From Amphiscolops sp. MND2022 (Eukaryota), in NCBI GenBank assembly GCA_964187785.1, contig OZ076409.1, positions 7,380,001 through 7,444,000 of the forward strand: a DNA stretch of 64,000 bases, in the 5' to 3' direction. Under the pieces are notes generated by a model. It saw only the letters and a list, made by a program, of their open reading frames with translations, was not told the DNA's origin and ran no database searches. Positions 45,805-62,190 of this stretch are shown here, piece by piece. The position numbers were made by a program, and so were the translations under genes. Within the stretch, counting starts at the first letter, position 1, and the number at the start of each line of letters is the position of its first letter.

Positions 45805-46500
45805 TCAAAAATTCGAAAAACTAAAAAAAATGATGTTTTGGAATTTGCTCTTGTCATAACCTTCATCATTTTCACTTTGTTCAGAATCTTCCAAACATTC
45901 CATTTGATGATTTGAAAGGTTATTTGCTGTTGTGTTTAGTCTAGGAAAATTCTCTCTTGAGTCCTGGACCTGTTGGCTGAATTTACTTTTATGCCGTCCA
46001 TATGACCCAAGGTCCAAAGTTTGGTCCATAGGGACGTTTCTACTCGGATGCCGTCCATCTGACCGAAGGTCCAATTTCGCGTTCTTAGGCTCCCTATGAT
46101 TTACTATGACATTTTCGATGCTCGGTAGTATTTTTTCATCGATAGCGGAGTTTATTACCTCCATAATATGGGAATTTAGATCAGATTTCATTTCTTCCAA
46201 TTTCCTCGACATCTGTGAAGAAATTTCTGAACTAATTGCTCTACTAGTTTCTACTGTAATTTCACTATTCTCACTCAAATTTGTATTCAAAAGAGATCTA
46301 TAGTTGCTTTCTTCTTGTCTGAAACCTTGTTGCCGTCTACTTGACTCAGGGTCAATTTCTATTTGATCTACTGTGTTTTGGTCTCTAATCTCGCTGTTTG
46401 AGTAATTTCCAAGCATCACATCTAAATTTTCAATATCTGACATTACGTCAGACTGTCTAGAACGTTTCTCTCTTGCTTTCTGCTTTCTAGTTGAAGGCAT
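45805..46500 (-). CDS. Copy of gag N-terminus in the 3' LTR, ending in flanking DNA
   Basis: Matches gag up to ...NDEGYD, then continues with flank-derived KSKFQNIIFFSFSNF*. Confidence 0.7.
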   Translation of the reverse strand: MPSTRKQKAREKRSRQSDVMSDIENLDVMLGNYSNSEIRDQNTVDQIEIDPESSRRQQGFRQEESNYRSLLNTNLSENSEITVETSRAISSEISSQMSRKLEEMKSDLNSHIMEVINSAIDEKILPSIENVIVNHREPKNAKLDLRSDGRHPSRNVPMDQTLDLGSYGRHKSKFSQQVQDSRENFPRLNTTANNLSNHQMECLEDSEQSENDEGYDKSKFQNIIFFSFSNF

Positions 46501-47405
46501 TTTCAAGGAATGGATTTGATTCCAACAGTGAATTGATCAACAGTAACAAATCAAACAGTTTTGTATCGTAGCGTTTTCAATCAATGAATGAATGTCCCTT
46601 CTTATTACAAATTCCGCGTATATATAGTTTATACTGCATGACACGCAATATTTTGCGTGTCAGGAACTAAATTTAGGGTGATATCATTCTAAGTATAGCC
46701 CCGATTTCATTATTAGGTCACTAGTCCTAAAAATAGACTGAGGGTTTTGACATTACGTCACACAAATGAATAGATATAAATAGCATCAAACAAACAGTGG
46801 GTATCTTTACATGTATTCAAATTCAGGTTAAAATCAACCTTTCATGCATTGGTAACATCAATACTCAATGAAATTCTAAATTTGACCATGCGTCAGCATG
46901 ACTGCAATGATAGACTGGTACTTTACTCTGATTGGTCAACAAGTACTTGTGACCACACGTCGGTTTGACTGCGGTAGAGTACTAGTTAATTAACTAAGAA
47001 AAGTGTCTTAAGGTACTCTTTAAACACCGTTTAACAGCACTTGAGTTACTTTGCTAAGTATTGCGTCGTTAACTAAGTGATGTACTTTAGGTCCAGATTA
47101 ATTGCAAGTAATTTCATCAATGGGAAATTCTAAATAGTAACTAATCAATAATAGCAATTGAATAAATGCACAGATTAAATGCTGTCAGTTTGACCTTTGG
47201 TCTAAATAGTAACATCGAAATTGCATGTTTAGCGTTAATAATTCGGTCATTACATGCATGAAACAAATATTAAACTATCAAAATAAATGCTAAAGTTCGT
47301 TTCAGAGTTTGTTCTAGATAGGTAGTACCCCGGGGGCTGGTGGCGTCTCATTACCTTCTGGCATCATTTGGTATAGGATGCCGTCACAAGCGGCAGCTTG
47401 CGACA
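45852..47405 (-). repeat. 3' LTR (1554 bp)
   Basis: Near-identical to 60421-61975 (roughly 20 differences by eye); preceded by the PPT. Confidence 0.97.
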
Positions 47406-48138
47406 CTCCCCCCGGTACGAGTATGAACGTCCCTGCTTTCATACCTGCCTGGAATGCATCACGTCTAGCAATCCGCTGCTCATAAGTTTCTCCGGGAATG
47501 TGTGTCTGTTCAAGGTACCCCAATGTTATTTCTTCTTTAATGTCCGCAGATGATTTCCCACAGATCACGCAACCAGTTTGGGTCGTCTCATTCGGTTGTC
47601 CACAGCTTCCCCCGACGCTAATTCCTAGGCCAGTGATGTGTGAATTGCCATACCATGAATCTGCCGAACCGTGAGGTTGCGTAGGCTGGTAGGTGTCAAC
47701 TGAGGGTCCTTGGTCTTCTAGCGGAGGTGACCATGGGGAGTCCCGTATTGGGTTTAGCTGGCCACAATACGTTATTGGGTGGTCATCCGCATTTGAGCCA
47801 TAAGAGGTTCTTGGGGGGCCCCCAACACACCAATCGAGCAAGTCTTGTGACGGGTCCGTAAAAGTGCTCACTGATCCAATTAAATCGTCATCTGGTATGT
47901 TCAGGTCGTTCAAGCAATGAGCTAATTCTGTAGTCATTGCCCGACCCGCGGTGAGTTGTGGAGGGAAGGGTATATTTTCACGATAACAAGCAAGAACTTG
48001 TATGTCGTCGTCTGAATCTTGACCGTCAGGTCCGTCTGCAATGGACACTGAGTCCACTTCCATTTCTTCATCAGATGACTGGTACGAAAGGCTAACTAGA
48101 GGTCTATCGTGTTCCTCCAAAGAAAATTGTAGAGACAT
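47314..48138 (-). CDS. Accessory sense ORF (274 aa) overlapping PPT and U3
   Basis: Intact ORF with an acidic/Pro-rich N-terminus and a CVICG motif; the last ~30 codons lie in the LTR. Confidence 0.75.
   Translation of the reverse strand: MSLQFSLEEHDRPLVSLSYQSSDEEMEVDSVSIADGPDGQDSDDDIQVLACYRENIPFPPQLTAGRAMTTELAHCLNDLNIPDDDLIGSVSTFTDPSQDLLDWCVGGPPRTSYGSNADDHPITYCGQLNPIRDSPWSPPLEDQGPSVDTYQPTQPHGSADSWYGNSHITGLGISVGGSCGQPNETTQTGCVICGKSSADIKEEITLGYLEQTHIPGETYEQRIARRDAFQAGMKAGTFILVPGGVSQAAACDGILYQMMPEGNETPPAPGVLPI
47406..47413 (-). promoter_or_regulatory. Polypurine tract
   Basis: Minus strand GGGGGGAG lies immediately before the TGTCGC start of the 3' LTR. Confidence 0.85.
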
Positions 48139-48770
48139 TTCCTTGTAGAAACGTTGAATGAGAAGTTTTTAGCAATTGTGACAAACAAGGTTTGTAGCAA
48201 CTGAGTTTCACAAAGTTTGGGAGGCAAGTAATTTCCTGCCGCCTGCCGTCTTCTTGACTTCAGGTCCAACCCCAATTTTGGCGTGGGTTGGGCGCGGGGT
48301 TTTCCCCGAATCATAGTTTTCACATTTCCTATTTAGGTTTCGATTAAGAGCGGAGTCTCGAATAATTTTCGAGTAATTTATCTGCGAAGCTTGTTAATTG
48401 CCTCTTCAAGTTGTTTTACTTTATTCTTCAAAGGCGTCACTTGATAATCTAAGTGTTGTCTCTCTTAATTCTTCGTCAACAATTAACTTGAAAGACCGTC
48501 GGTCCTTTCGACGGCAGCAATGATGATAACCAATCAAATAACACTGGATTGATTGGTAAAATATGACGAATAATTTTATGAATGTGAAATGAAATAAGTA
48601 ATTTGATGCATTTTTAGGTGAAGAGAGAGTAATAAAGCGAAACAAGTAAAGAAGTCCATGAATATTTCACTGGCAGATTCCATACCATGAACTGTGAATA
48701 AAGAGCATGACTAAAGGAAAGGAGAAGATGGAAACATAAAAGAAAGTCTTACATGTAGCCACGACATCCA

Positions 48771-49453: not shown

Positions 49454-52400
49454 ATGGATTCAACATCAGGTTGGTTCTTTTGAAAGTGTTAAAATTAGGC
49501 TTGATCAGGGCTCATAATTCTAACTAAGTTACTTCCTCCATCGTGAAATGTTTGCTGTCAGCATGAACATTGTGTCAAAAGTATTTCCGGAAATATTTAT
49601 TAAGCGCGGCTAGATGGATTCATATTCAGGAAGTGAACCGCGTTTATTCATCTCATTCCGTTTAGGTGATGAATCTAATGGCCAACCTCTCCAATTGGTC
49701 GCTGAAGAAGAAAAAATGGATACAACTGATTCCTTTGTAACTGCCTCTTCCACTGTCAATAGTTTCCCCACCGTAAAGTCTATGACTCACGGCCAGAATG
49801 ATAATGACGACAAGTCAGATGATCCTGAGAGAGTAGTGGAAGACGATCCCAGTCTGGTGAGTGAGGGAGCAACTACAAGTTTGGGGAACATCACTGTGAC
49901 GCCTCAAGATCCCCCCATCACTATTTCCAACACAGAGGCCACTCCTCCTGCTATTACAGCAACTGGGAACGTTGAGAGTAGTAGCACTGATGAGAGTTGT
50001 GGGGCTTACATCGCTCGAAAGTGGGAACAATTGGGCTGTTCGCAAGAAACTGGTACATCGAGTCAGAACGACTGGAGCGGCAAGAAGTTTAGCGAGAGTA
50101 GCATGATGGAGCTGATGCCCGGTCAGTATTCCCCTACCCAAGATGAATTGGAGTTGGACGAAGCGCCAGAGGTTGCATTCCTGGACTCTCCCAAAGTACT
50201 ATTGAAAAGCAGTCTCAAGTCTCGATATGGGCCTTCCGAAGCAAAAGTTCAAAGACTGAGCGTGAAGTTGATTGCTCCAAGGACTGATTTGTCTGATGCC
50301 GCCGCCGGGACGGAAGGTCTCTCAAGTTCTGAAGCTGGATCCGAGTTCGCTGGGGAATTTGAAGCCCCCAGATTTGCAGATCCAACAGCGAACAGAGAAT
50401 CCGATAAGGTAACCAGTGACGCCGGGTTAGAGTCTGAAGGATTAGTCGGGTCCACAGTGGCTGATGTCCTGTTTGCACCTGCCCAAGCTAACGTATTTAG
50501 AGTGAGTGATGTAGCCAGCAACACGTCAGTAGATTTCCCTGAATCAGCACCTCGAGTCCCTCAACTGTCAGCTAGTAGTCGCGCTTTGATAAAGGAGTAT
50601 TTTGACGAGGCCACCCCCATCAGATTGTCTCCTGGGCATCCTACCCTTGCATTGAATGAGGGCCAAGTAAGTAGCTTGTTAAAAGTTGTAGCAGATGAAG
50701 CAGTTAAATCGTCGCTGAAAGCTATGGAAAACTTGGTACAACAAGCAAGCAGATTGAGCCTTGGAGCCCAGCGATCACCGACGGCCGTCATTCCGAGGTC
50801 GAAGAAAGCAATTTCTCAGACCAGTTATGCTGGGTCACAATCTGGTTTGTCATCAGGTCATACAAGCGATACCAGTGGGGGAATCAGAAGTGACGATGAT
50901 TTCGCCAGTATTGGATATGTTTACGAACATTCCGACCTGGAGAGTCAGCATTTTACTCCTCCCCCAACCGGTCCGTCTGGAAGCCGTCAAATTGACCTTG
51001 TGTCACCTGGAGCTTCAACCCAGACTGATAGCCCCGGAGGACAAACCTTGGCTGCGCTCAAAGCGGAGGCAGTATCGGAAAGGACTAAGTCTGGAACACG
51101 CCGAAGACAAAGCAAGAAGCCTACTCGTCCCAAAGGAGAGAGCAGACATCGGGTGCCTCGTGCCTGTAAAATCATGAAAGAGGCATATTTTAAAGGAATG
51201 GAGTGGACGAAGACGTTTGTAAGCGGACCAGTTGATCCTCGCTGGAATCCGTACAAATTTTATTGCCAAATCTGTAAAGGCAATATATCAATTTATGGAC
51301 GCGGCGCTCGAGAGATCCTTCGTCACCACTCCACCGAACGTCACCTTCGTAAGGATCAGAGGTGGCGTTACGAGCATCTTGCCATAGAAGACCCCGTGAG
51401 TGGAAGGAAAAAACACCATGTCAGAGGGAAGGACGGACGACTTCTCACCCCCTACGAGCTTCAATTAGAATTACCCAAGTTCATTGGGGTGGAACTCGTG
51501 GACATCGGAGAGAAGCTTCCGTTCTACGAAGAATACGCTCAAGGAGTTGACTACATGGCTTCTTCATCCGACAACCGTGTTCGAGTCCAGATGTCAGTTC
51601 TGGGTAACTACTTGCGAAGCTACGGCGATATCAGCACCCTGAGGAACCTCTGGCGGGATGTTGGGGTCGTTGTAAACCATCAGTCGCTCTTTACTGACTT
51701 TGACTGGAGTAAAGAACGGCTATCAGTAAGTACTTTCCTGCCGTTAAATCGACTTAAGGTCTTCCCCAGCCCAGTAATCGTTACCTTTGGCCTGCATTAA
51801 ATATGATGTTTTCATTCTAGGCTCTCTTCCACCACCTGTTCCTACAAAGTATACATGACATTGGAGACCATGTAGTTGCAGCGGGCGAGTATTCGCTGGA
51901 ATTTATCAAGCAAGGAGTCTTCCTGTTAGTGTTCATTCGTTTCTGGAGAAAGGACGAGCTCTGCCGAGTTTTCCTGAAGCGAACCGGCCGGGTCCTGGGA
52001 CAGTCGGCAGCCGAATTAAGCCTCATAAGTGACGTTTTGGCAGTTTTCTCACTCGGCCCCAACATTGTCAGTTGCTCCGGTTGCAGCCTGGAAACGATCC
52101 AGAAGGTAAATAGTTCTCCTTACAGTAAGCATGGACTCCAACACCCTCTCAGATTTGAGGACTTTTCAATCGCGCGGCTAATGCATAAAGAAAGCTATAG
52201 TGTCTTTGGACGCATCGACTTCCACTCCGTTCTCAAGTATCTAATCATCTTCTTGGGGGGAAGCCTCGACTGCGATTGGACCTTGATGACGCCAGTGTTG
52301 GCAAAGGTTAGACTCTCTCATTTTAGGCTTTTAGTCCACGGCTCTTTCAAAGGTACTAATAAACTTGTTGTGTTCAGGCTGTTCGTACTTGCCAAATTGA

Positions 52401-53866
52401 ACTCGCCACTCTCCCAACACTGTGTCAGGAGCTGCTTGCTAACTGGACAGATGTGACCAAATTCCTGAATGAACATGCACCTCCGCATGAAATGATGGGA
52501 GTGAGAAAACAAGTAAGTCGCTGCCGTCCCGTTGACCTTCAGTCTAATTTCAGTTGTTTCAATTTTCCTTTTGTTGTTCTAGCCTCAGAACCTAGAGCGA
52601 GCCATGATCCATGATGAGTTGTTTCTGTGCCGGCTTGAACTCTTCTATCGCTTGGTCAGGGATTGTAAGTATAATCCACCCGTAGTACGTATCATTTCTT
52701 GAGCTTTCGACAATCATAGTGAACGCAAGTGTTTAGGTACCACGAGCTTTGTGCCACATCTGACTGAACGACGGGATCATGGATTCCATATCTACAGGCA
52801 GTTATGCCAGTACCTCTTCAAGCTAGGAAGACGCTGTATCAAGCCGAAAAGTCTGCCACAGGAAACAGATCTGTCAGGGATTTTGGGTATTGCTATGTCG
52901 GATGCCAAAGCCTTAGCCATTCCCGATTTCATCGCCCGATCGAAGCTCGACCAACGACTGAACGTGGCTTGCAAAGTCAAGGCAGAAAAGGAATTGAGCG
53001 ACAAGAAGGGCAATCGGGCTAATCTTCCGAAACTCGTGAAAGAGAACAAAGAAGAGTTTGGGCGACTTGGGAGGAGCTACGTTGCCTACCTTTTCCATGC
53101 TGCCCAAAACAACTTACAACTGACCTCCACCATTGTGAAAGGATTGGGCTCCTTTGATCTGGACATTATGTATCGTTCTCCCCTTAGCCAGGCGCTGAAT
53201 TGTTTCAAGCATCTTTTCCGTAGCTTTCATCTTCGCGGTTACTTTCAAGCCGACGCGGAGTCCATCTATACAGAGGAATATTTATCATTCCTTGACGAGA
53301 TCCGCAAAGAGATGCCTGATCTGAGCCAACCAAGGGTCATAATCCAGGATGCAGTGACTCACATTTCCAATCATGTTGCCTTAGAGTCACGACCCCATCT
53401 TGCTCGGATCTTTAAGCTGAGCTGTTTATGTTTGGATGAGAGGTATGTTAGTATGCCTACCGTGAAGTTTGGTCCAGTGCGGACAGATGACCCCAAAAGT
53501 AAACTTATTGACACCATTCTGCCCGTTCAATCCTTCTTTATTAACGTGGGGCGGAGCATAGATGCCTTCACTTCAGCTTCTTCAATAGCTAAGTTCCTTT
53601 CCTTCGAACCTACGTTCGGGAATACTGCCTTCTCTGACATGTATAGCCCCTGGGACAGCCTCAATCGCTTCGATCGCTCTGAAATTCTTGCTGCTTTACG
53701 TCCGGGCTCAATGAAGAGGAAGACTGAAAGTCGAAAACTGAGGTTTAAAGATCTGAAAAGCAACAGCAGTTCCAAGAGTCTTCCGCCAGCCAGTGCCAAA
53801 GGATCGCCTGTGAGGCGTCAATCAGACAGCGAGTTGCCCTCTAGTTCATCTATTAAAGACACTTAA
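49454..53866 (+). CDS. Antisense spliced gene (~1300 aa), zinc-finger protein probably derived from a hAT-type transposase
   Basis: Predicted GT-AG introns at 51726-51820, 52307-52377, 52513-52582, 52665-52736 (and possibly 49470-49665) all join the ORF pieces in frame. Zinc finger FYCQICKGNISIYGRGAREILRHHSTERH. Confidence 0.85.
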
Positions 53867-54093: not shown

Positions 54094-57000
54094 CTAGTAC
54101 CTGTATTCGTCAGTGAAGTTGGGGGTAGGATTGGGGCGTAGGTTATATCTCCCTCCCCTAGGACTTTCATTTTCTACAACACAATCATCAGTTTCTTCAA
54201 TTAATACATCGGGCACGGTTGTATTGTTCCCCCCGGAAGTTGAAATTTCTGAATTTTCATCTCTAGGAAAGTCCTGATCGATCAATTCATCGTTTTTAGA
54301 TTCGGTACTTTGTTGCCGTCTAGCGGACTGACGGTCCTCATTGTGTGCGTTTCTTGAGTACTGCTCCGTATTATCAGCCTCAGTATTTGTTTGCCGTCGC
54401 GCGGACCGAAGGTCCGCTTCGTTTATTTCGTTTGAGCGTGAGTCACTATCAGTATCATCAGCGTGAGCGGCGTCAGTATTTGTTTGCCGTCGCGTGGACC
54501 GTAGGTCCAAATCTGTGATTATAGCATCTTGTTCATCGGAATTGGTAGGGAGTTCATTAGTAACAGTCCGATTTTCAGAATTAGGAGGGAAATCGTCAAA
54601 ATTGGTTTCCCATGAAATGATGTACAGATCATCTTGTGGAATAATAATTTCATCGTCTGCTTGTAAATTTCCTTCGGGGCGAATGTCTTGTGGGGTAGTA
54701 TTTGGAGTGTATTTTCTAAGGCGTATTCGGTGTAATATCTGCGTTTTGTTAGTACTAAGTTTGCGAACAATATAGTTGTCGTTAGGTAAAACTTTTTCAA
54801 TGACGTACGGTCCGATCCAACGAAATTCACGAAAAGGAATTTTAGAGCCTTGATGGTCAGCTAGAGGTTGTAAAATGAAGCAAAAATCTCCTTGTTGTAG
54901 AGGAGCTGCTTTAGCCTTTCGGTCATAATATTCCTTGTACTTTAAATATGATTGCATGATGTTTTTCTTTGTTTGATCAATTAATATTTGCGTACGTCTT
55001 TGAAATTCTTCAGCAAAATCAGTCGTTGGAGTGATCTTTGGGTTAGGGTTTAATCCAAACCGATGGTCTAAGATATTATAGGGTACTCTTCCGTGAAAAA
55101 ATCGGGTGGGTTCGCATCCAAGACTTGAATGATAGGTCGTGTTATAATTAAGGACAGCCAATGGGAGATATTTGTGCCATTGACGCCTGTATTCACCTGA
55201 TGCCATTTTAAGGTTGCCCTTAAGGCTGGCATGAGTGCGTTCTAGTTTGCCTATCGTCTGAGGATGCTTTGTGGTCGCGCACCGAAGGTGAATTCCTAAA
55301 ATTTTGGTATTTTCTTCTAGTAGTTTGGACGTAAAGGCAGTGCCTTTGTCGGTGATCAGCGTAGTCGGCAAGTAGGAATGTTTTGTCATGATATCAATAA
55401 TGACCTTTGCCGTATTGACGACCGAAGCGTCCGTTACTGGGTAGGCAAAAAGATATCTTGAAAACACGTCCAGAGCCGTTATGACATTTTCGTAACCTCC
55501 ACTTGGGGGTAAGTTGGGCAGAATGTCAATTTGTAAAGCATCTTCTGGGCCAAGATCCCATTCAGGTAAATTGAGTAATTCAGGTGTTATGGATGCATTG
55601 TTGATTCTTTTGTCTTTTATACAAATTTCACACCCTTGGACCCACTTTTTGACAATTTTTACAATTCCAGGAAAGTAGTATTTTCGTCGAATTTCGTGCA
55701 GCATTTTTGAGATTCCCGGGTGTTTGTTCGCGGAACCATGTAGTGATTGAAGTAATTCTGTGACTAGATGTTTCGGTAATAATGCTTGGCGGAATTGGAC
55801 ACTGCCTGTTTCATCGTAGTAGTCTCTGAAAATGATGTCATCATGTACGGACAGACGGTCAATTTGACGGCAGTAATGTCGGTAGCGCGAATCTTGCTGT
55901 AAGATGGTTTCAGAGTATTCTTCTTTTTGCAGTTTGAGTCGTAATTGATGCAAGATAAGGTCGTTCTGTTGTTCTATAGCCATGGTGGTTGGTTTTGCCA
56001 GTTTTTGTATATTTTGAGTTTGGAAGTGTGTATTATCATGAGTGCTAAGATGATCTAACAAAATATCAGGAGGTTGATTCATTGGGTTTGACCTGGCGTC
56101 TTGTTTGCGTTTCCAGATTTGTTCTTCTGTTTCTTCATCATCGTCCGTATAGAAGATCTGTTCCTCTTCAGTAACTCCCGCTGATTGGACGTTGAGTTCA
56201 ATGGGTGTGGTGGAAATATCTTCTCGTATCTGGAGTATGAGTTTTTCTTTGGGACAGATTTCTAGACGCGACAAGTAGTCAGCGGCAGTATTGTTTTTGC
56301 CAGGTATATGGGCTATTGTGAAACTGAATTGCATAACGTAGTCACACGCGTTCCACAATGTAGGTGGAATGATTTTTGTTTGAAAAGAGCGAGTGACTGA
56401 CTTGTTGTCTGTTAGTATTATCACCGGTTTCGGGGTCCCCCAGAAGATATGGCCAAACTCTTTGAATGCAAAGAATATTGCTAGGAATTCTTTCGCATAA
56501 ATGGTTATCTTCAGTTGGGCAGGACTAAAGGTCTTGGATCCATATGCTACAGGTGCGAAGGCTTTTCGCGTCGAAGTATATTTTTCCATCGGATCGTCCT
56601 CGATGAGAACTGCATAACCTGCTGCCGAAAAACTAGCGTCTGTCATTAGGGCTATCTGTTTATCGGGTAGAGGTTGTTTGAGTGCCAGTTCACAACATCG
56701 GTCAAGAGCTTTGTTGATCTCGGTGAATTTTTCTAACAGATCGGGTGTCACCATGACTTTGGCATCACTTTTCAATAACTTGAAAAACGGTGTGAGTTTT
56801 TCTGAGAGCCTTGGGATGTAGTTACGGTATTAGTTCAAGAATCCCAAGTGTCTTTGAAGTGCTTTCTTGGATTTAGGGATTTTGGTCTTTTCCAAGAAAT
56901 TCTGGACCCTGGGTCGTTGTGGCCGCACCCCTTCAGGAGTGATAGTGCGTCCCAGGAAGTCAATTTCCTTGGCTCCGAAATGGCACTTGTGCATCGTTAG

Positions 57001-59270
57001 TTTGAGACCAGCGGTCCTGATGCACTGGAACGTTGCTCGAAGGTTGTTGATGAGCTGAGTAGCGTCGTTTGCAGCTATCCCAATATCATCTACGTACTGA
57101 GCACATTGGTCAGCTTTTATCACTTTATCCAGGTATTCGCGCATAAAGCTCGAGAATGCGGACAGCGCTCTGCTGTGACCTTGGGCAAGTCTCCGATAGG
57201 CAAAGGTTCTGCTGGCAAAATTGAATGCCAGCATCTCGATTGACATCTGGTCAGCCATCTGAAGGCAGTGGTATGCTTGAGAACAATCAAGTTTGCAAAA
57301 TAGTCGTTTGCCTGCCATGTGCTGCGCAGCATCCGTTAGTGTGCTGACAGGATGGTTGTTGTTGATATAATCGTCGGAAATCAGGTTGTTGATCTTTCGG
57401 AGGTCGACCAGGAGTCGAAGTTTGCCGTTAGGTTTTTTCTGGGCACAAATGGGACTTGCATATTTGGAAAATGGGAGAGTTGTTATAATCCCATATCGAT
57501 GTAGTAGGGCTAGTTCTACAAGGATATCTTCTTTGAGGTTGATAGGAGTAGGTAAGCTTTGACTATAGGCAGGAGAGTCATCTTTAGGGGTCAAAGTGAC
57601 CTTGAAGTCCTCGTTCATACCTATATCAAAGCGGTGTCGTGCAAATATATCGTGAAATTCAACAAGTAATTCTTCAATTTGGGCAATTTCGGCTGGGTTT
57701 AGCGTCGAGTCTGTCCAGTCGAAATTAGCAAGAAATTGTTTCCGCGATTCAGGGTCATCCTGGGGGTTGAGTTTCTCTAAATCTTTGAGATTTCGTAGTT
57801 CTCTAAGGATTCTTTGTTGTATTGGTGTGTGAGTTTGGGGATCTCCTGGTTCTTCTGGAGTAGGGAACCAATAGTTCTCACTATCATCGCTAGTTTTCGG
57901 AGATTTGATCAGGCTACTGGCATAATAGGCAGCATGTTCCGGGTTATCCTTCAAAAGGTGCCAAGTGGTCACAGGATCAATGGGTTTGACGTATTTCATC
58001 TGCTCTGGTGTGAGGACAGAGAAATTGGCAATGTGCGCACCTCTTTTGAGGGTGTACGGTTGGTCAGTGAAGTTGTTGACATGGATTGATACCTGACCTT
58101 GGGTCAGTGTGACTAGAGCGGCGCAGAAGGTTATATCACCATCTTCTGCAAGGTCGTTGCTCGGTTGAAGAATTCCAGTGACGTTTGTGTCGTCATATAG
58201 TTGTGAGAACATGGAAACCATATGTCTGTCGTTGGGGGGAATAGTTATGTCCTCCCGTGCACAGATAGGTTCCATGACGTTAGTGTACTTGTGGTCAGCT
58301 GTTTTCAATTGCATGGAGAAGAAAGGGAAGTTTAAAACTCCTTGACGCATGTCCAGTATGGTATTGTTCCGTTGCAGGAACGAGAGACCAATTAACGGAC
58401 TTGTGAGTTTTTCCATAACAATGAAGATCTCATGGAAATCGATGTCCCCGACCTCGAATTTGAGTTCAACGGTGCTCTTTGGAGTCTCCAGCTGTCCATT
58501 GGCTACCATAATCTGGAAGTTGGGTGCCGGGCCCTCTTTAATTATTGACTGAGGGGCTAACAATCGGATTTTACGTAGATCAGCTTCTGGGATAGCGCTA
58601 GATAGGGCTCCCGTGTCTACAAGGCCATCTAATGTTAGTTCGCCAAAATCCATGGGGAAGTAGAGCATTCGTCGTTTGTATTTGAGTCCCAAATTGGTCG
58701 TCAACGGGACGTAGTCGGGTTCACTGTTTCGTGAGATCAGCGTATTCAGAAAGCGTTCTTCCACTGTTGCCGTCAATGTGACCAAAGGTCCATTGTGTGG
58801 AAGTTGTTCGGTTATTTCCTCCTGGATTGGTGAATTGGTTTAATCCACACATTTTGCCAGGGGTCAACAGAGGCCGTGGATAGTTTTGTGTTCAGCATCT
58901 GATCAATGTGGGGTTGATCGTGTTCGATATCTGCAATGTTTTTGGTAAAGTTTTTGTAGAAGTGTAGCTGATGTTGGTTGTAGATTTGAATGTCCCAATA
59001 GGGGTCGAATCCGAAGTCCGGTTCAGGATAATATGGGTTGTAGTTATCGATTAGGGGAAGGGGGCGAATGGTCGTAGTATTAGAGTGCTGTCTGTCGGAC
59101 TGAAGGTCCGGGTTGTGTAAGTGAGTAGGCAAATGCTTCACCTGCTGCTGCCAGTCAGCTGATGAATTTTCTTTAATGGAAGAGTAATATTCTGTATAAT
59201 ATATATTAGGAGGATCAGATATTATATATTGTCTGATACGTAATTTTTCATTAATATGGAGTCGTGGCAA
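54094..59270 (-). pseudogene. pol: pol: protease, dUTPase-like spacer, RT, RNase H, integrase (frame break near 58810, in-frame stop at 56830)
   Basis: LVDTGA, LDCSQAYH, YVDD, MTDAS, AKEFLAI, TDNKS, ADYLSR, HHCC, LQID, ITDKG and GKLER motifs. Confidence 0.97.
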
Positions 59271-59272
59271 AT

Positions 59273-61069
59273 CTAGTTTTTTGAGTTTTTAAGGATAGAA
59301 GTAGTGGGTTTATTGGTAGGGTCATCACGACTACTGGTCGTGTCGTCATCCTTTGGACTATCCAATTTGAGGTTCTTGGGCTTGAGGTGGGCTCCAGCGC
59401 CTTTCCAACATCTCTCCGCCGGGTGATTGGTTTTGTCACAAGTCGGGCACTTTGGGTACTCTTTTTTGGTACTCGAGCCTTCATTGCGTTTTTGCTCTTC
59501 CTTTCGTTTTAGTTTTCGGCAATCGTCTTTGACATGTCCAGGTTTTTTGCAGTAGTTGCAAGTTATTCCTGGGTCAATGCCTGATGAAAGGAGTCCTTGA
59601 CCCGGTCGTGTAGCTGTCGGGGCTGTTGACATTGTGGGAACGGGAATGTCGTCGCCTTCCTCAAGTCCATTCAACTCCAGCTCTCGTTCGAGATGAGTGA
59701 CAATTTCTTCATAGGTGGCATTCTCTAATCGCGCCATGTTGACTGAACGTTTGAGTTTCGGTGGGAGTTTTGCGTATAGCAGACTGTCAATCATGGCTTG
59801 TGCGTGCTCGCCAAAGGCTTTTTCGGCGCCCTGATTGAGTTCCTCGAGAAAATCGGGCAATTTCATTGTGTTTGGGTCAAATACCAATTTGTGCCATTTA
59901 TGTTTGGCAGTTGCCTGGGATTCAGGTTTGACATATTTCCTACGAAACACAGCCAGTACGTCTTCTAAGGTTTGTCTATTTGCTGACCTGATGTTGCGGA
60001 AGGTTTGCAGGGCATTTTTGCGCAACAGTGAATGAAAGTGATTAATTTTCATTGCTTTCGTCATATCGGGTTGCATCTTTATCACCGTGTGAAAAAGGTC
60101 TTCAAACAGTTCGAATTTTTCAGATTTGCCGTCAAATGTAAGTGTGGCAGTTTTGACTGGTCGTACCATCAGTGTTTGTGCTGATGATTTGTTGTTCATT
60201 CCCATAATGACATCGGCAAGTCTGTTTATGGGGTCTAATGGTGTTTGGGGCTGCATTTCCCGGTCATTGATAGGGTTTGAGGGAATCTGTGCCGGGAGAT
60301 TGGTATCTAATGTGTCATCGTTGACGCATTGTTGATGGGGAATTTTGTTTCTGGACTGCGTGGGACGTCCGGTCAGAAATTCAGGGACTACATGTGGAGT
60401 AAGGTTGGCTCCTGTCACCATGTCATAACCTTCATCATTTTCACTTTGTCCAGAATCTTCCAAACATTCCATTTGATGATTTGAAAGGTTATTTGCTGTT
60501 GTGTTTAGTCTAGGAAAATTCTCTCTTGAGTCCTGGACCTGTTGGCTGAATTTACTTTTATGCCGTCCATATGACCCAAGGTCCAAAGTCTGGTCCATAG
60601 GGACGTTTCTACTCGGATGCCGTCCATCTGACCGAAGGTCCAATTTCGCGTTCTTAGGCTCCCTATGATTTACTATGACATTTTCGATGCTCGGTAGTAT
60701 TTTTTCATCGATAGCGGAGTTTATTACCTCCATAATATGGGAATTTAGATCAGATTTCATTTCTTCCAATTTTCTCGACATCTGTGAAGAAATTTCTGAA
60801 CTAATTGCTCCACTAGTTTCTACTGTAATTTCACTATTCTCACTCAAATTTGTATTCAAAAGAGATCTATAGTTGCTTTCTTCTTGCCTGAAACCTTGTT
60901 GCCGTCTACTTGACTCAGGGTCAATTTCTATTTGATCTACTGTGTTTTGGTCTCTAATTTCGCTGTTTGAGTAATTTCCAAGCATCACATCTAAATTTTC
61001 AATATCTGACATTACGTCAGACTGTCTAGAACGTTTCTCTCTTGCTTTCTGCTTTCTAGTTGAAGGCAT
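59273..61069 (-). CDS. gag: Gag with two CCHC zinc knuckles; ATG at 61069 inside the 5' LTR
   Basis: TFDGKSEKF capsid-like start, CNYCKKPGHVKDDC and CPTCDKTNHPAERC. Confidence 0.95.
   Translation of the reverse strand: MPSTRKQKAREKRSRQSDVMSDIENLDVMLGNYSNSEIRDQNTVDQIEIDPESSRRQQGFRQEESNYRSLLNTNLSENSEITVETSGAISSEISSQMSRKLEEMKSDLNSHIMEVINSAIDEKILPSIENVIVNHREPKNAKLDLRSDGRHPSRNVPMDQTLDLGSYGRHKSKFSQQVQDSRENFPRLNTTANNLSNHQMECLEDSGQSENDEGYDMVTGANLTPHVVPEFLTGRPTQSRNKIPHQQCVNDDTLDTNLPAQIPSNPINDREMQPQTPLDPINRLADVIMGMNNKSSAQTLMVRPVKTATLTFDGKSEKFELFEDLFHTVIKMQPDMTKAMKINHFHSLLRKNALQTFRNIRSANRQTLEDVLAVFRRKYVKPESQATAKHKWHKLVFDPNTMKLPDFLEELNQGAEKAFGEHAQAMIDSLLYAKLPPKLKRSVNMARLENATYEEIVTHLERELELNGLEEGDDIPVPTMSTAPTATRPGQGLLSSGIDPGITCNYCKKPGHVKDDCRKLKRKEEQKRNEGSSTKKEYPKCPTCDKTNHPAERCWKGAGAHLKPKNLKLDSPKDDDTTSSRDDPTNKPTTSILKNSKN
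59276..59282 (-). promoter_or_regulatory. -1 ribosomal frameshift heptamer A AAA AAC
   Basis: Immediately precedes the gag TAG; the -1 frame is the open 58812-59270 frame. Confidence 0.8.
60407..60420 (-). promoter_or_regulatory. Primer binding site
   Basis: TGGTGACAGGAGCC directly after the 5' LTR CA. Resembles the complement of a tRNA-Leu 3' end with a mismatch; primer identity uncertain. Confidence 0.75.
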
Positions 61070-61975
61070 TTTCAAGGAATGGATTTGATTCCAACAGTGA
61101 ATTAATCAACAGTAACAAATCAAACAGTTTTGTATCGTAGCGTTTTCAATCAATGAATGAATGTGTTTTGTTTATTACAAATTCCGCGTATATATAGTTT
61201 ATACTGCATGACACGCAATATTTTGCGTGTCAGGAACTAAATTTAGGGTGATATCATTCTAAATATAGCCCCGATTTCATTATTAGTTCACTAGTTCTAA
61301 AAATAGACTGAGGGTTTTGACATTACGTCACACAAATGAATAGATATAAATAGCATCAAACAAACAGTGGGTATCTTTACATGTATTCAAATTCAGGTTA
61401 AAATCAACCTTTCATGCATTGGTAACATCAATACTCAATGAAATTCTAAATTTGACCATGCGTCAGCATGACTGCAATGATAGACTGGTACTTTACTCTG
61501 ATTGGTCAACAAGTACTTGTGACCACACGTCGGTTTGACTGCAGTAGAGTACTAGTTAAATAACTAAGAAAAGTGTCTTAAGGTACTCTTTAAACACCGT
61601 TTAACAGCACTTGAGTTACTTTGCTAAGTATTGCGTCGTTAACTAAGTGATGTACTTTAGGTCCAGATTAATTGCAAGTAGTTTCATCAATGGGAAATTC
61701 TAAATAGTAACAAATCAATAATAGCAATTGAATAAATGCACAGATTAAATGCTGTCAGTTTGACCTTTGGTCTAAATAGTAACATCGAAATTGCATGTTT
61801 AGCGTTAATAATTCGGTCATTACATGCATGAAACAAATATTAAACTATCAGAATAAATGCTAAAGTTCGTTTCAGAGTTTGTTCTAGATAGGTAGTACCC
61901 CGGGGGCTGGTGGCGTCTCATTACCTTCTGGCATCATTTGGTATAGGATGCCGTCACAAGCGGCAGCTTGCGACA
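60421..61975 (-). repeat. 5' LTR (1555 bp)
   Basis: Matches 45852-47405; identity stops exactly at the TG and CA termini. Confidence 0.97.
61150..61200 (-). promoter_or_regulatory. Putative LTR core promoter and poly(A) signal
   Basis: Minus strand CTATATATA, then AATAAA, then an initiator-like TCATTCATT about 30 nt after the TATA. Confidence 0.5.
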
Positions 61976-61990
61976 TACACTAACGATTGA

Positions 61991-62190
61991 NNNNNNNNNN
62001 NNNNNNNNNNNNNNNNNNNNNNNNNNNNNNNNNNNNNNNNNNNNNNNNNNNNNNNNNNNNNNNNNNNNNNNNNNNNNNNNNNNNNNNNNNNNNNNNNNNN
62101 NNNNNNNNNNNNNNNNNNNNNNNNNNNNNNNNNNNNNNNNNNNNNNNNNNNNNNNNNNNNNNNNNNNNNNNNNNNNNNNNNNNNNNNNNN
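61991..62190. other. Assembly gap (200 N)
   Basis: Run of N. Confidence 1.

Follow-up and report, generated by a model that had tools for sequence, protein, structure and literature searches.

Where does the gag gene of a long terminal repeat (LTR) retrotransposon begin? The working rule, which is built into the annotation of such elements, is that LTRs are non-coding and that gag follows the primer binding site (PBS). A 2026 survey of metazoan Ty3/gypsy elements, in which LTRs are sought outward from the GAG start codon, reflects this usual assumption (PMC13524379). The rule appears to be broken in the stretch of DNA considered here (the window), 64,000 nucleotides (nt) from the genome of Amphiscolops sp. 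MND2022 (assembly GCA_964187785.1, contig OZ076409.1, positions 7,380,001 to 7,444,000), which carries a minus-strand LTR retrotransposon of ~16.1 kb. Judged from its sequence and that of its relatives, Gag of this tRNA-Leu-primed element, which has a Ty3/gypsy-type gene order, is very probably initiated inside the 5′ LTR.

The gag frame across the end of the LTR

The gag frame, the two LTRs and the sites that adjoin them are placed as follows in the window.

59273 to 61069, minus strand: gag open reading frame (ORF), 598 codons and a stop; DUF1759 at residues 312–442, CCHC zinc knuckle at residues 503–519
60422 to 61069, minus strand: the 216 LTR-borne gag codons; in-frame omega (dN/dS) 0.10–0.13, 144 of 150 matches stop-free
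60419 to 60421, minus strand: codon 217, an ATG that takes its A from the end of the LTR and its TG from the start of the PBS; conservation of M217 in gag alignments is 90% or more
60421 to 61975, minus strand: 5′ LTR, 1555 bp, TGTCG...TATGACA, delimited by self-BLAST, end-to-end sister copies and the sisters' 5-bp target site duplications (TSDs)
60409 to 60420, minus strand: PBS TGGTGACAGGAG, which encodes (M)VTG; an unbroken 12-base complement of the 3′ end of tRNA-Leu(UAG) plus CCA
45852 to 47405, minus strand: 3′ LTR, 98.7% identical to the 5′ LTR and preceded by a purine tract
47406 to 47413, minus strand: polypurine tract (PPT) GGGGGGAG, adjoining the 3′ LTR
45805 to 46500, minus strand: repeat of the Gag N-terminal codons within the 3′ LTR (second copy), with 15 codons of flank before the stop

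The gag ATG at 61069 is LTR position 907 of 1555, 649 nt inside the repeat, and the 648 nt from 61069 to 60422 make exactly 216 codons. Codon 217 is split over the LTR end (A|TG) and is followed by GTG ACA GGA (V T G); codons 217–220 (MVTG) are the PBS itself, translated in frame. The gag stop codon is at 59275-59273, and the nearest upstream in-frame stop lies 12 codons 5′ of ATG 61069. The remaining five frames over the same 648 nt hold 7–27 stops each, so the open frame is not due to chance. In the 3′ LTR the second copy begins at ATG 46500 and is open to the LTR end and through the 15 flank codons (231 amino acids, aa); the two copies are separated by 4 synonymous and 2 non-synonymous differences. 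A preliminary description of this DNA had placed the ATG within the 5′ LTR, had put the number of LTR-encoded codons at about 216, had read YDMVTG across the LTR end and the PBS, and had expected a second Gag N-terminus in the 3′ LTR, all of which is borne out.

A self-BLAST of the window gave a single direct repeat (45852-47405 versus 60421-61975; 1555 bp, 98.7% identity, 19 mismatches and 1 gap). On the minus strand both repeats read TGTCG...TATGACA, with TGGTGACAGGAGCC directly after the 5′ repeat and CCGGGGGGAG directly before the 3′ repeat. The window copy is one of two LTR pairs found without a TSD (GTGTA versus AGAGC; the bases flanking the 3′ LTR are 45847-45851), and its 5′ LTR is separated by just 15 nt from an assembly gap of 200 N (within 61976-62190); for these reasons the LTR ends were judged from sister copies. 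A search of the 1.07-Gb assembly returned 2279 candidates, and the 40 that were scored (94–100% identity) are mostly paired, ~14.5 kb apart. All of the 30 genomic LTRs fetched, which represent many contigs, align from base 1 to base 1555. Among 13 LTR pairs the 5-bp TSD is perfect in 10, matches at 4 of 5 bases in 1 and is missing in 2; a perfect TSD also surrounds one solo LTR. The sister copies thus have the TG...CA direct repeats and TSDs by which LTR retrotransposons are generally recognized.

The missing TSD and the adjoining gap would favor the idea that the repeat is not a true LTR, or that its end has been misplaced by an assembly artefact or a segmental duplication. Against this stand the identical ends in 30 of 30 copies, the TSDs in 10 of 13 pairs, solo LTRs with TSDs in two families, and a PPT and a tRNA-complementary PBS exactly at the ends, and the probability of such an artefact is negligible. 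As the origin of the repeat, nested insertion or segmental duplication was likewise ruled out by TSD, PBS and PPT.

The complementarity to tRNA-Leu(UAG), from a gene of the same genome, begins at the first base 3′ of the LTR. In the fetched copies TGGTGACAG follows every 5′ LTR and the purine tract precedes every 3′ LTR; GGGGGGAG itself precedes 16 PPT-adjacent LTR copies, namely all 14 3′ LTRs and two shared LTRs (L027 and L029). When the genome was searched with the complement of the putative PBS as a pattern, 72 forward and 3 reverse matches were obtained, whereas a control pattern gave 0 and 1. Of the 72 forward matches, 65 fall in a dense tRNA-Leu gene array on contig C11 (~5.999-6.079 Mb); by eye the members of this array have TAG or AAG anticodon loops, and several copies are degenerate. 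The array member fetched (L077) is a tRNA-Leu with anticodon TAG according to ARAGORN, and the tRNA-Leu of the C11 array is the predicted primer tRNA of the element family. Since sister-copy ends, TSDs and tRNA complementarity agree, the LTR end and the PBS are correctly placed, at the positions that the preliminary description gave them.

Selection on the LTR-borne codons and their occurrence in relatives

The frame that starts at the LTR ATG (598 or 603 aa) is open in 12 of 15 PBS-adjacent copies, and in 13 of 15 other LTRs no stop interrupts it before the LTR end. LTR length varies from 1552 to 1556 nt, and all of this variation lies 5′ of the ATG; within the coding part an in-frame insertion of one codon was seen in one copy. 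A protein search of the genome with the 216 residues gave 15558 candidates, of which 150 were scored (88–100% identity), and 144 of these are stop-free.

Six diverged 5′ copies (subfamily copies L061-L066) were compared with the window copy over the LTR-borne codons. They differ from it by 37–40 synonymous and 19–25 non-synonymous changes, which corresponds to an omega of 0.10–0.13; two control frames gave 0.9–1.9. In each of five disjoint copy pairs omega was again 0.10–0.13, and the pooled pairs had 126 synonymous versus 77 non-synonymous differences where 20% synonymous was expected (p 3e-39). The differences fall at codon positions 1/2/3 as 9/11/43, 8/8/40, 10/12/41 and 13/10/42. These values indicate that the LTR-borne codons are under purifying selection at the protein level. 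The preliminary description had proposed dN/dS across copies as a check, and it would have been undone by an upstream frame that is not conserved; the frame is conserved, across copies and across families.

These results bear first on the view that Gag is initiated with the Met of MVTG at the junction (codon 217), in which case the LTR frame 5′ of it would be an untranslated leader that is open by chance. Wherever an LTR that ends in CA meets a PBS that begins with TGG, an ATG is formed, and the gene models P0124, P0116, P0133, P0135, P0173 and P0179 do start at MVTG. Such a start is hard to reconcile with an omega of 0.10–0.13, a third-position bias and neutral-looking control frames, with a frame that is open in 144 of 150 scored copies and in three diverged families, with length changes that are in-frame only, and with the near invariance of the first 33 residues among 13 aligned members. 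Furthermore, 17 ATGs, 8 in frame and 9 out of frame, intervene between ATG 61069 and Met217, so that scanning ribosomes are unlikely to reach the latter. A start at the junction Met is largely refuted by the selection tests and is very improbable.

A second view is that the 648 nt are conserved for functions in cis of the repeated (R) and unique 5′ (U5) regions, such as packaging, dimerisation, strand transfer or integrase binding, and not for a protein. Retroviral R/U5 regions and leaders hold signals of these kinds, and conservation is highest beside the PBS. Cis-acting functions would not account for third positions that are spared, or for an omega of ~0.12 in one frame only, and the block is more diverged at the nucleotide level than its flanks (8.6–9.7% versus 2.0–4.5%). 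This explanation is contradicted by the frame-specific pattern of the substitutions and is extremely improbable.

The divergence of this block deserves further description. Between copies, LTR positions ~802-1545 (window ~61174-60431) differ by 8.6–9.7%, mostly at synonymous sites; in the same copies the unique 3′ region (U3) differs by 3.7–4.5% and the remaining gag by 2.0–2.4%, which makes the block 2–4 times more diverged in this comparison of three elements. Its two limits coincide with those of the minus-strand strong-stop unit, the inferred start of transcription on one side and the PBS on the other. The divergence may be the footprint of strong-stop strand-transfer recombination. Were this so, such exchange would independently place the start of transcription upstream of the ATG.

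The LTR-borne segment is a real protein segment, with a rate of evolution above that of the Gag core. Conserved in it are a basic N-terminus and a predicted long helix at residues 83–135. In an AlphaFold model of Gag, which is poor as a whole (mean predicted local distance difference test score, pLDDT, 40.5), this helix has a pLDDT of 67–90 and a weaker helix is seen at residues 4–29; the rest of the segment is probably disordered. No Pfam family matches residues 1–216, and a search of the ESM Atlas with them found no look-alike, the best score (0.75) being to an unrelated cluster. Speculatively, a segment with a basic N-terminus and a long helix could serve to bind nucleic acids, to direct Gag to the nucleus or to form multimers.

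In the databases 98 proteins match the N-terminal part at 42–99% identity, most of them ~570–600 aa long. Their alignment shows conservation of residues 1–33 and of the helical stretch, and DMVTGA is (nearly) invariant. Among the 13 aligned members in which residues 1–33 are nearly invariant, identity to the window's LTR-borne part goes down to ~43%; conservation in the relatives is much higher in the Gag core than at the N-terminus. When 1.84 billion representatives were searched with a profile, 2716 relatives were returned. In 11 aligned gag sequences with 33–68% identity to the window Gag, MVTG is nearly invariant and is preceded by N-terminal extensions of 0 to ~195 residues.

Two further families were found in the same genome. 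The P0090-type family has 46% identity in the N-terminus, and its members occur as pairs ~14.2 kb apart. The LTR of this family measures ~1582 bp and has CATGACA|TGGTGACAGG at its end; the ATG is placed 583 nt within it, and a solo LTR is flanked by a TSD. In the more distant P0100-type family, the layout of which is read from the spacing of genome matches and from the frames, matches to the N-terminus form pairs spaced by ~14.3 kb, in which the 5′ copies have frames of 579 aa. First-look searches gave 15558, 27556 and 13561 candidates for the LTR-borne Gag N-termini of the three families, and these families, with elements of 14–16 kb, probably occupy a considerable fraction of the 1.07-Gb assembly.

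No match to the N-terminus of P0127 was found in this genome, and a metagenome contig (L079) carries a gag nearly identical to that of P0127. The order on this contig is pol, antisense region, third ORF, GACGGGGGAG|TGTCGCAG, 1792 nt, CTCACA|TGGTGACAGGAG and gag, and the gag ATG lies 129 codons before the LTR–PBS junction. An AATAAA ~55 nt before this gag ATG weakly hints that, if it is used, the whole coding part would there lie in U5. With three diverged families in this genome and a further case in DNA from another organism, the layout is a stable design and not the accident of a single copy.

Transcription, translation and the fate of the LTR-borne frame

Two motifs upstream of the gag ATG bear on where the transcript would begin.

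61189 to 61196, minus strand: TATATATA box (TATA), from an alignment of 7 copies from 4 subfamilies in which the surrounding U3 is otherwise unalignable
61152 to 61162, minus strand: ATTCATTCATT, initiator-like, conserved in the same 7-copy alignment; it would place the transcription start ~85–90 nt before the gag ATG

In the subfamily of L061-L064 the U3 cannot be aligned with that of the window copy, and even the 30 nt 5′ of the ATG are unrelated; similarity starts at the ATG. The upstream elements that are kept across subfamilies are, in order, a palindrome, TATATATA, a hypervariable patch and ATTCATTCATT, the last ~35–43 nt downstream of the start of the TATA box. The patch occupies LTR positions 802-813, between the TATA box and the initiator-like motif. 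There is no ATG within 100 nt upstream of the gag ATG, which has an A at position −3. Since the leader is free of ATGs and this A is present, a ribosome scanning from the inferred cap would start at 61069.

The following scheme is proposed. Transcription would start from the initiator-like motif near 61158, ~30–40 nt 3′ of the conserved TATA box, and after a leader of ~90 nt without an ATG, translation would begin at ATG 61069. As can be read in the sequence, 216 codons lie in the R/U5 part, codon 217 extends over the LTR end, and MVTG is the PBS; the gag frame continues into a conserved capsid-like core and the zinc knuckle. By the standard scheme, reverse transcription would then copy the coding stretch into both LTRs, since U5 is everything between R and the PBS. 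Because R/U5 is duplicated in this way, each 3′ or solo LTR would also have a promoter, the ATG and 216 stop-free codons.

With this start, R plus U5 must be ~740 nt, most of it coding. The preliminary description had called U5 very long and protein-coding. This holds for R and U5 together; no polyadenylation hexamer that could divide them is conserved. The AATAAA at 60725 (codons V-I-N) is the sole canonical hexamer after the inferred start; it is present in 35 of 36 close copies, and it is missing in L065 and in the P0090-type LTR. An AATAAA at 61176-61171, which falls between the TATA box and the initiator-like motif, was considered as the polyadenylation signal of a very short R and rejected, as the 3′ LTR and sister copies lack it.

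A third explanation is that selection acts on the LTR-borne ORF mainly for a product of its own and not for the N-terminus of full-length Gag. Such a product could come from transcripts of 3′ or solo LTRs, from spliced or prematurely polyadenylated RNA, or from proteolytic release. Every LTR has the promoter, the ATG and the 216 codons; many predicted public proteins of ~210–270 aa consist of the LTR-borne part alone (among them P0114, P0125, P0151, P0168, P0174, P0175 and P0182); and in the window's subfamily the AATAAA at 60725 lies inside the coding part. That signal is not shared by L065 or the P0090-type LTR, the ORF has no stop of its own inside the LTR, and in L079 as well as in all three families it continues in frame into the Gag core, which would be needless for separate expression. 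A mainly separate product is unlikely, and the two roles are not mutually exclusive.

Several points weigh against initiation of Gag within the 5′ LTR. The start of transcription is placed from motifs only, and the putative identity of ATTCATTCATT as an initiator rests on motif and spacing. No canonical polyadenylation hexamer is conserved from the TATA box to the LTR end, and a polyadenylation signal inside the coding part would have to be ignored in the 5′ LTR. Some predicted public proteins begin at MVTG, as listed above, which could reflect truncation of the gene models or genuine short forms. The LTR of L079 was delimited from the PPT and PBS motifs at its junctions rather than from a second copy. 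The window copy itself is not intact, since its TSD is missing and its pol is interrupted by an in-frame stop; the 5′ and 3′ LTRs of this copy may not be sisters, and the copy is probably recombinant or mis-joined, and inactive.

If Gag is initiated in the LTR, one short sequence is under three constraints, as integrase attachment site, as tRNA primer site and as protein (MVTG), and the evolution of a structural-protein domain is tied to that of the LTR and to strand-transfer recombination. Thousands of LTRs in this genome would each have a promoter and a stop-less frame of 216 codons, which would explain the many orphan ORFs of ~210–270 aa in gene predictions, and these frames would be a ready source of chimeric or regulatory peptides.

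As to how the arrangement arose, the junction ATG (CA|TGG) could be the ancestral start of gag, with Gag later extended upstream by overprinting of U5 and the new module swapped by strand transfer. This history is rather doubtful; it would fit the 2–4 times higher divergence of the block at LTR ~802-1545 relative to U3 and the remaining gag. If it were true, R/U5 would be a fast-evolving protein module that travels with the LTR, and since R-U5 is the minus-strand strong-stop unit, a Gag domain would be exchanged between lineages by strand transfer. 3′ and solo LTRs could then express truncated Gag N-termini, for example as copy-number regulators like Ty1 p22, and LTR-borne Gag N-termini could fuse to host exons.

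Known systems and the remainder of the element

The pol region and the end of gag were defined as follows.

54094 to 58839, minus strand: pol, with protease (PR), a dUTPase-like domain and reverse transcriptase (RT) at 58839-56833, and RNase H (RH) and integrase (INT) at 56829-54094 (Pfam, ORFs)
59276 to 59282, minus strand: heptamer A_AAA_AAC just before the gag stop; gag ends TCA AAA AAC TAG
58812 to 59288, minus strand: intermediate frame of 158 codons, −1 relative to gag

The Pfam matches in pol come in the order gag-asp_proteas, RVT_1, RT_RNaseH, Integrase_H2C2 and rve. This order, PR-RT-RH-INT, is that of Ty3/gypsy elements (Metaviridae); integrase follows RT and RNase H, which is not the order of Ty1/copia elements (Pseudoviridae). 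The BEL/Pao signature was not found, there being no Pfam match to Peptidase_A17 or DUF1758; the protease matches gag-asp_proteas/Asp_protease_2, and the DUF1759 match in Gag is barely over the cut-off (26.1 versus 25.4 bits). The in-frame stop of the window copy's pol, at 56832-56830, falls in a conserved C-terminal segment of RT (...LGFLN*YRNYIP...).

Ty1 and Ty2 of Saccharomyces cerevisiae, members of Ty1/copia, are the nearest precedent. There gag likewise begins in the 5′ LTR, and since the PBS abuts the LTR, it lies inside the gag coding sequence. The overlap in Ty1 is ~12 codons of an LTR of ~330 bp, and the primer is tRNA-iMet. The present element has an overlap of 216 codons, which take up 649 of 1555 LTR bases and encode 36% of Gag, together with a tRNA-Leu primer and PR-RT-RH-INT order. 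In its geometry and coding selection the element appears to share with Ty1 a gag ATG upstream of the LTR end; it is like Ty1 in this arrangement of the gag start alone and is not a member of Ty1/copia.

The likeness to canonical Ty3/gypsy elements extends to TG...CA LTRs, a 5-bp TSD, a PBS abutting the 5′ LTR and a PPT abutting the 3′ LTR, as well as to a zinc knuckle in Gag, the PR-RT-RH-INT order and a −1 frameshift heptamer at the end of gag. In textbook Ty3/gypsy elements, gag starts downstream of the PBS, whereas here it starts 649 nt upstream. Also unlike them, the element has a dUTPase-like domain and ~6.7 kb of additional internal sequence beyond pol, with conserved antisense ORFs.

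The glyco-Gag of murine leukaemia virus and other gammaretroviruses is a further comparison. An upstream in-frame start, encoded in the leader, extends Gag at its N-terminus; this start, an alternative to the main AUG, is situated 3′ of the PBS and not in the LTR. In contrast, the extension described here is LTR-borne, and the sequence evidence points to its ATG as the main or only start. Parts of retroviral LTRs are known to be coding: sag of mouse mammary tumor virus lies in U3, and the ends of nef or bel overlap U3. These are accessory genes on the U3 side, and none of them is known to place the N-terminus of a structural gene in R/U5. A full-text literature search, which did not extend to subscription journals or Repbase notes, found no report of a large LTR-borne Gag segment, only the statement on Ty1. 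The principle of a gag start in the LTR is thus known from Ty1, and the large LTR-borne Gag segment would be new.

Several minor observations concern the rest of the element. The heptamer A_AAA_AAC is likely a −1 frameshift site into the next frame. Since gag, the intermediate frame and pro-pol are each offset by −1, two successive −1 frameshifts are suggested; in copy L063 an indel joins gag to the intermediate frame, with the result that 858 aa are open. The dUTPase-like domain (58020-58265, minus strand; pol residues 192–273; Pfam E 6.7e-06) lies between protease and RT, a position that is unusual for a Ty3/gypsy-type element.

An ORF of 728 aa at 49614-51800 on the plus strand, antisense to gag-pol, is an integral and conserved part of the element family. 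Of 9158 genomic candidates, 61 were scored (60–100% aa identity), mostly stop-free over ~700–790 aa, and the scored relatives always lie inside elements on the strand opposite gag; Pfam gave only a weak C2H2 match. One copy with a 99%-identical LTR carries a version of this ORF that is only 66% identical, and the elements are therefore modular mosaics. A second antisense frame (52703-53866, plus strand; 387 codons from stop to stop) has no Pfam match. None of the ORFs beyond pol (728 and 387 aa antisense, 284 aa sense) has a Pfam env match, as judged by Pfam and not by a structural search.

Elements may also be joined end to end. At C10:13398044-13430851 (L027 and L029), three LTRs stand ~15–16.6 kb apart, and two of them have a PPT upstream and a PBS downstream; flanked in this way, they are shared between the elements of a tandem array.

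The sense frame of 284 codons from stop to stop (47314-48168, minus strand) runs through the PPT and ~92 nt into the 3′ LTR, as in the sag, nef and bel cases. Between subfamilies, U3 can be aligned over the first 91 nt of the LTR alone, and the ...GGVSQ... junction of this frame recurs in the metagenome contig L079. Since the 284-codon frame enters the start of the LTR and gag its end, both ends of the LTR are coding.

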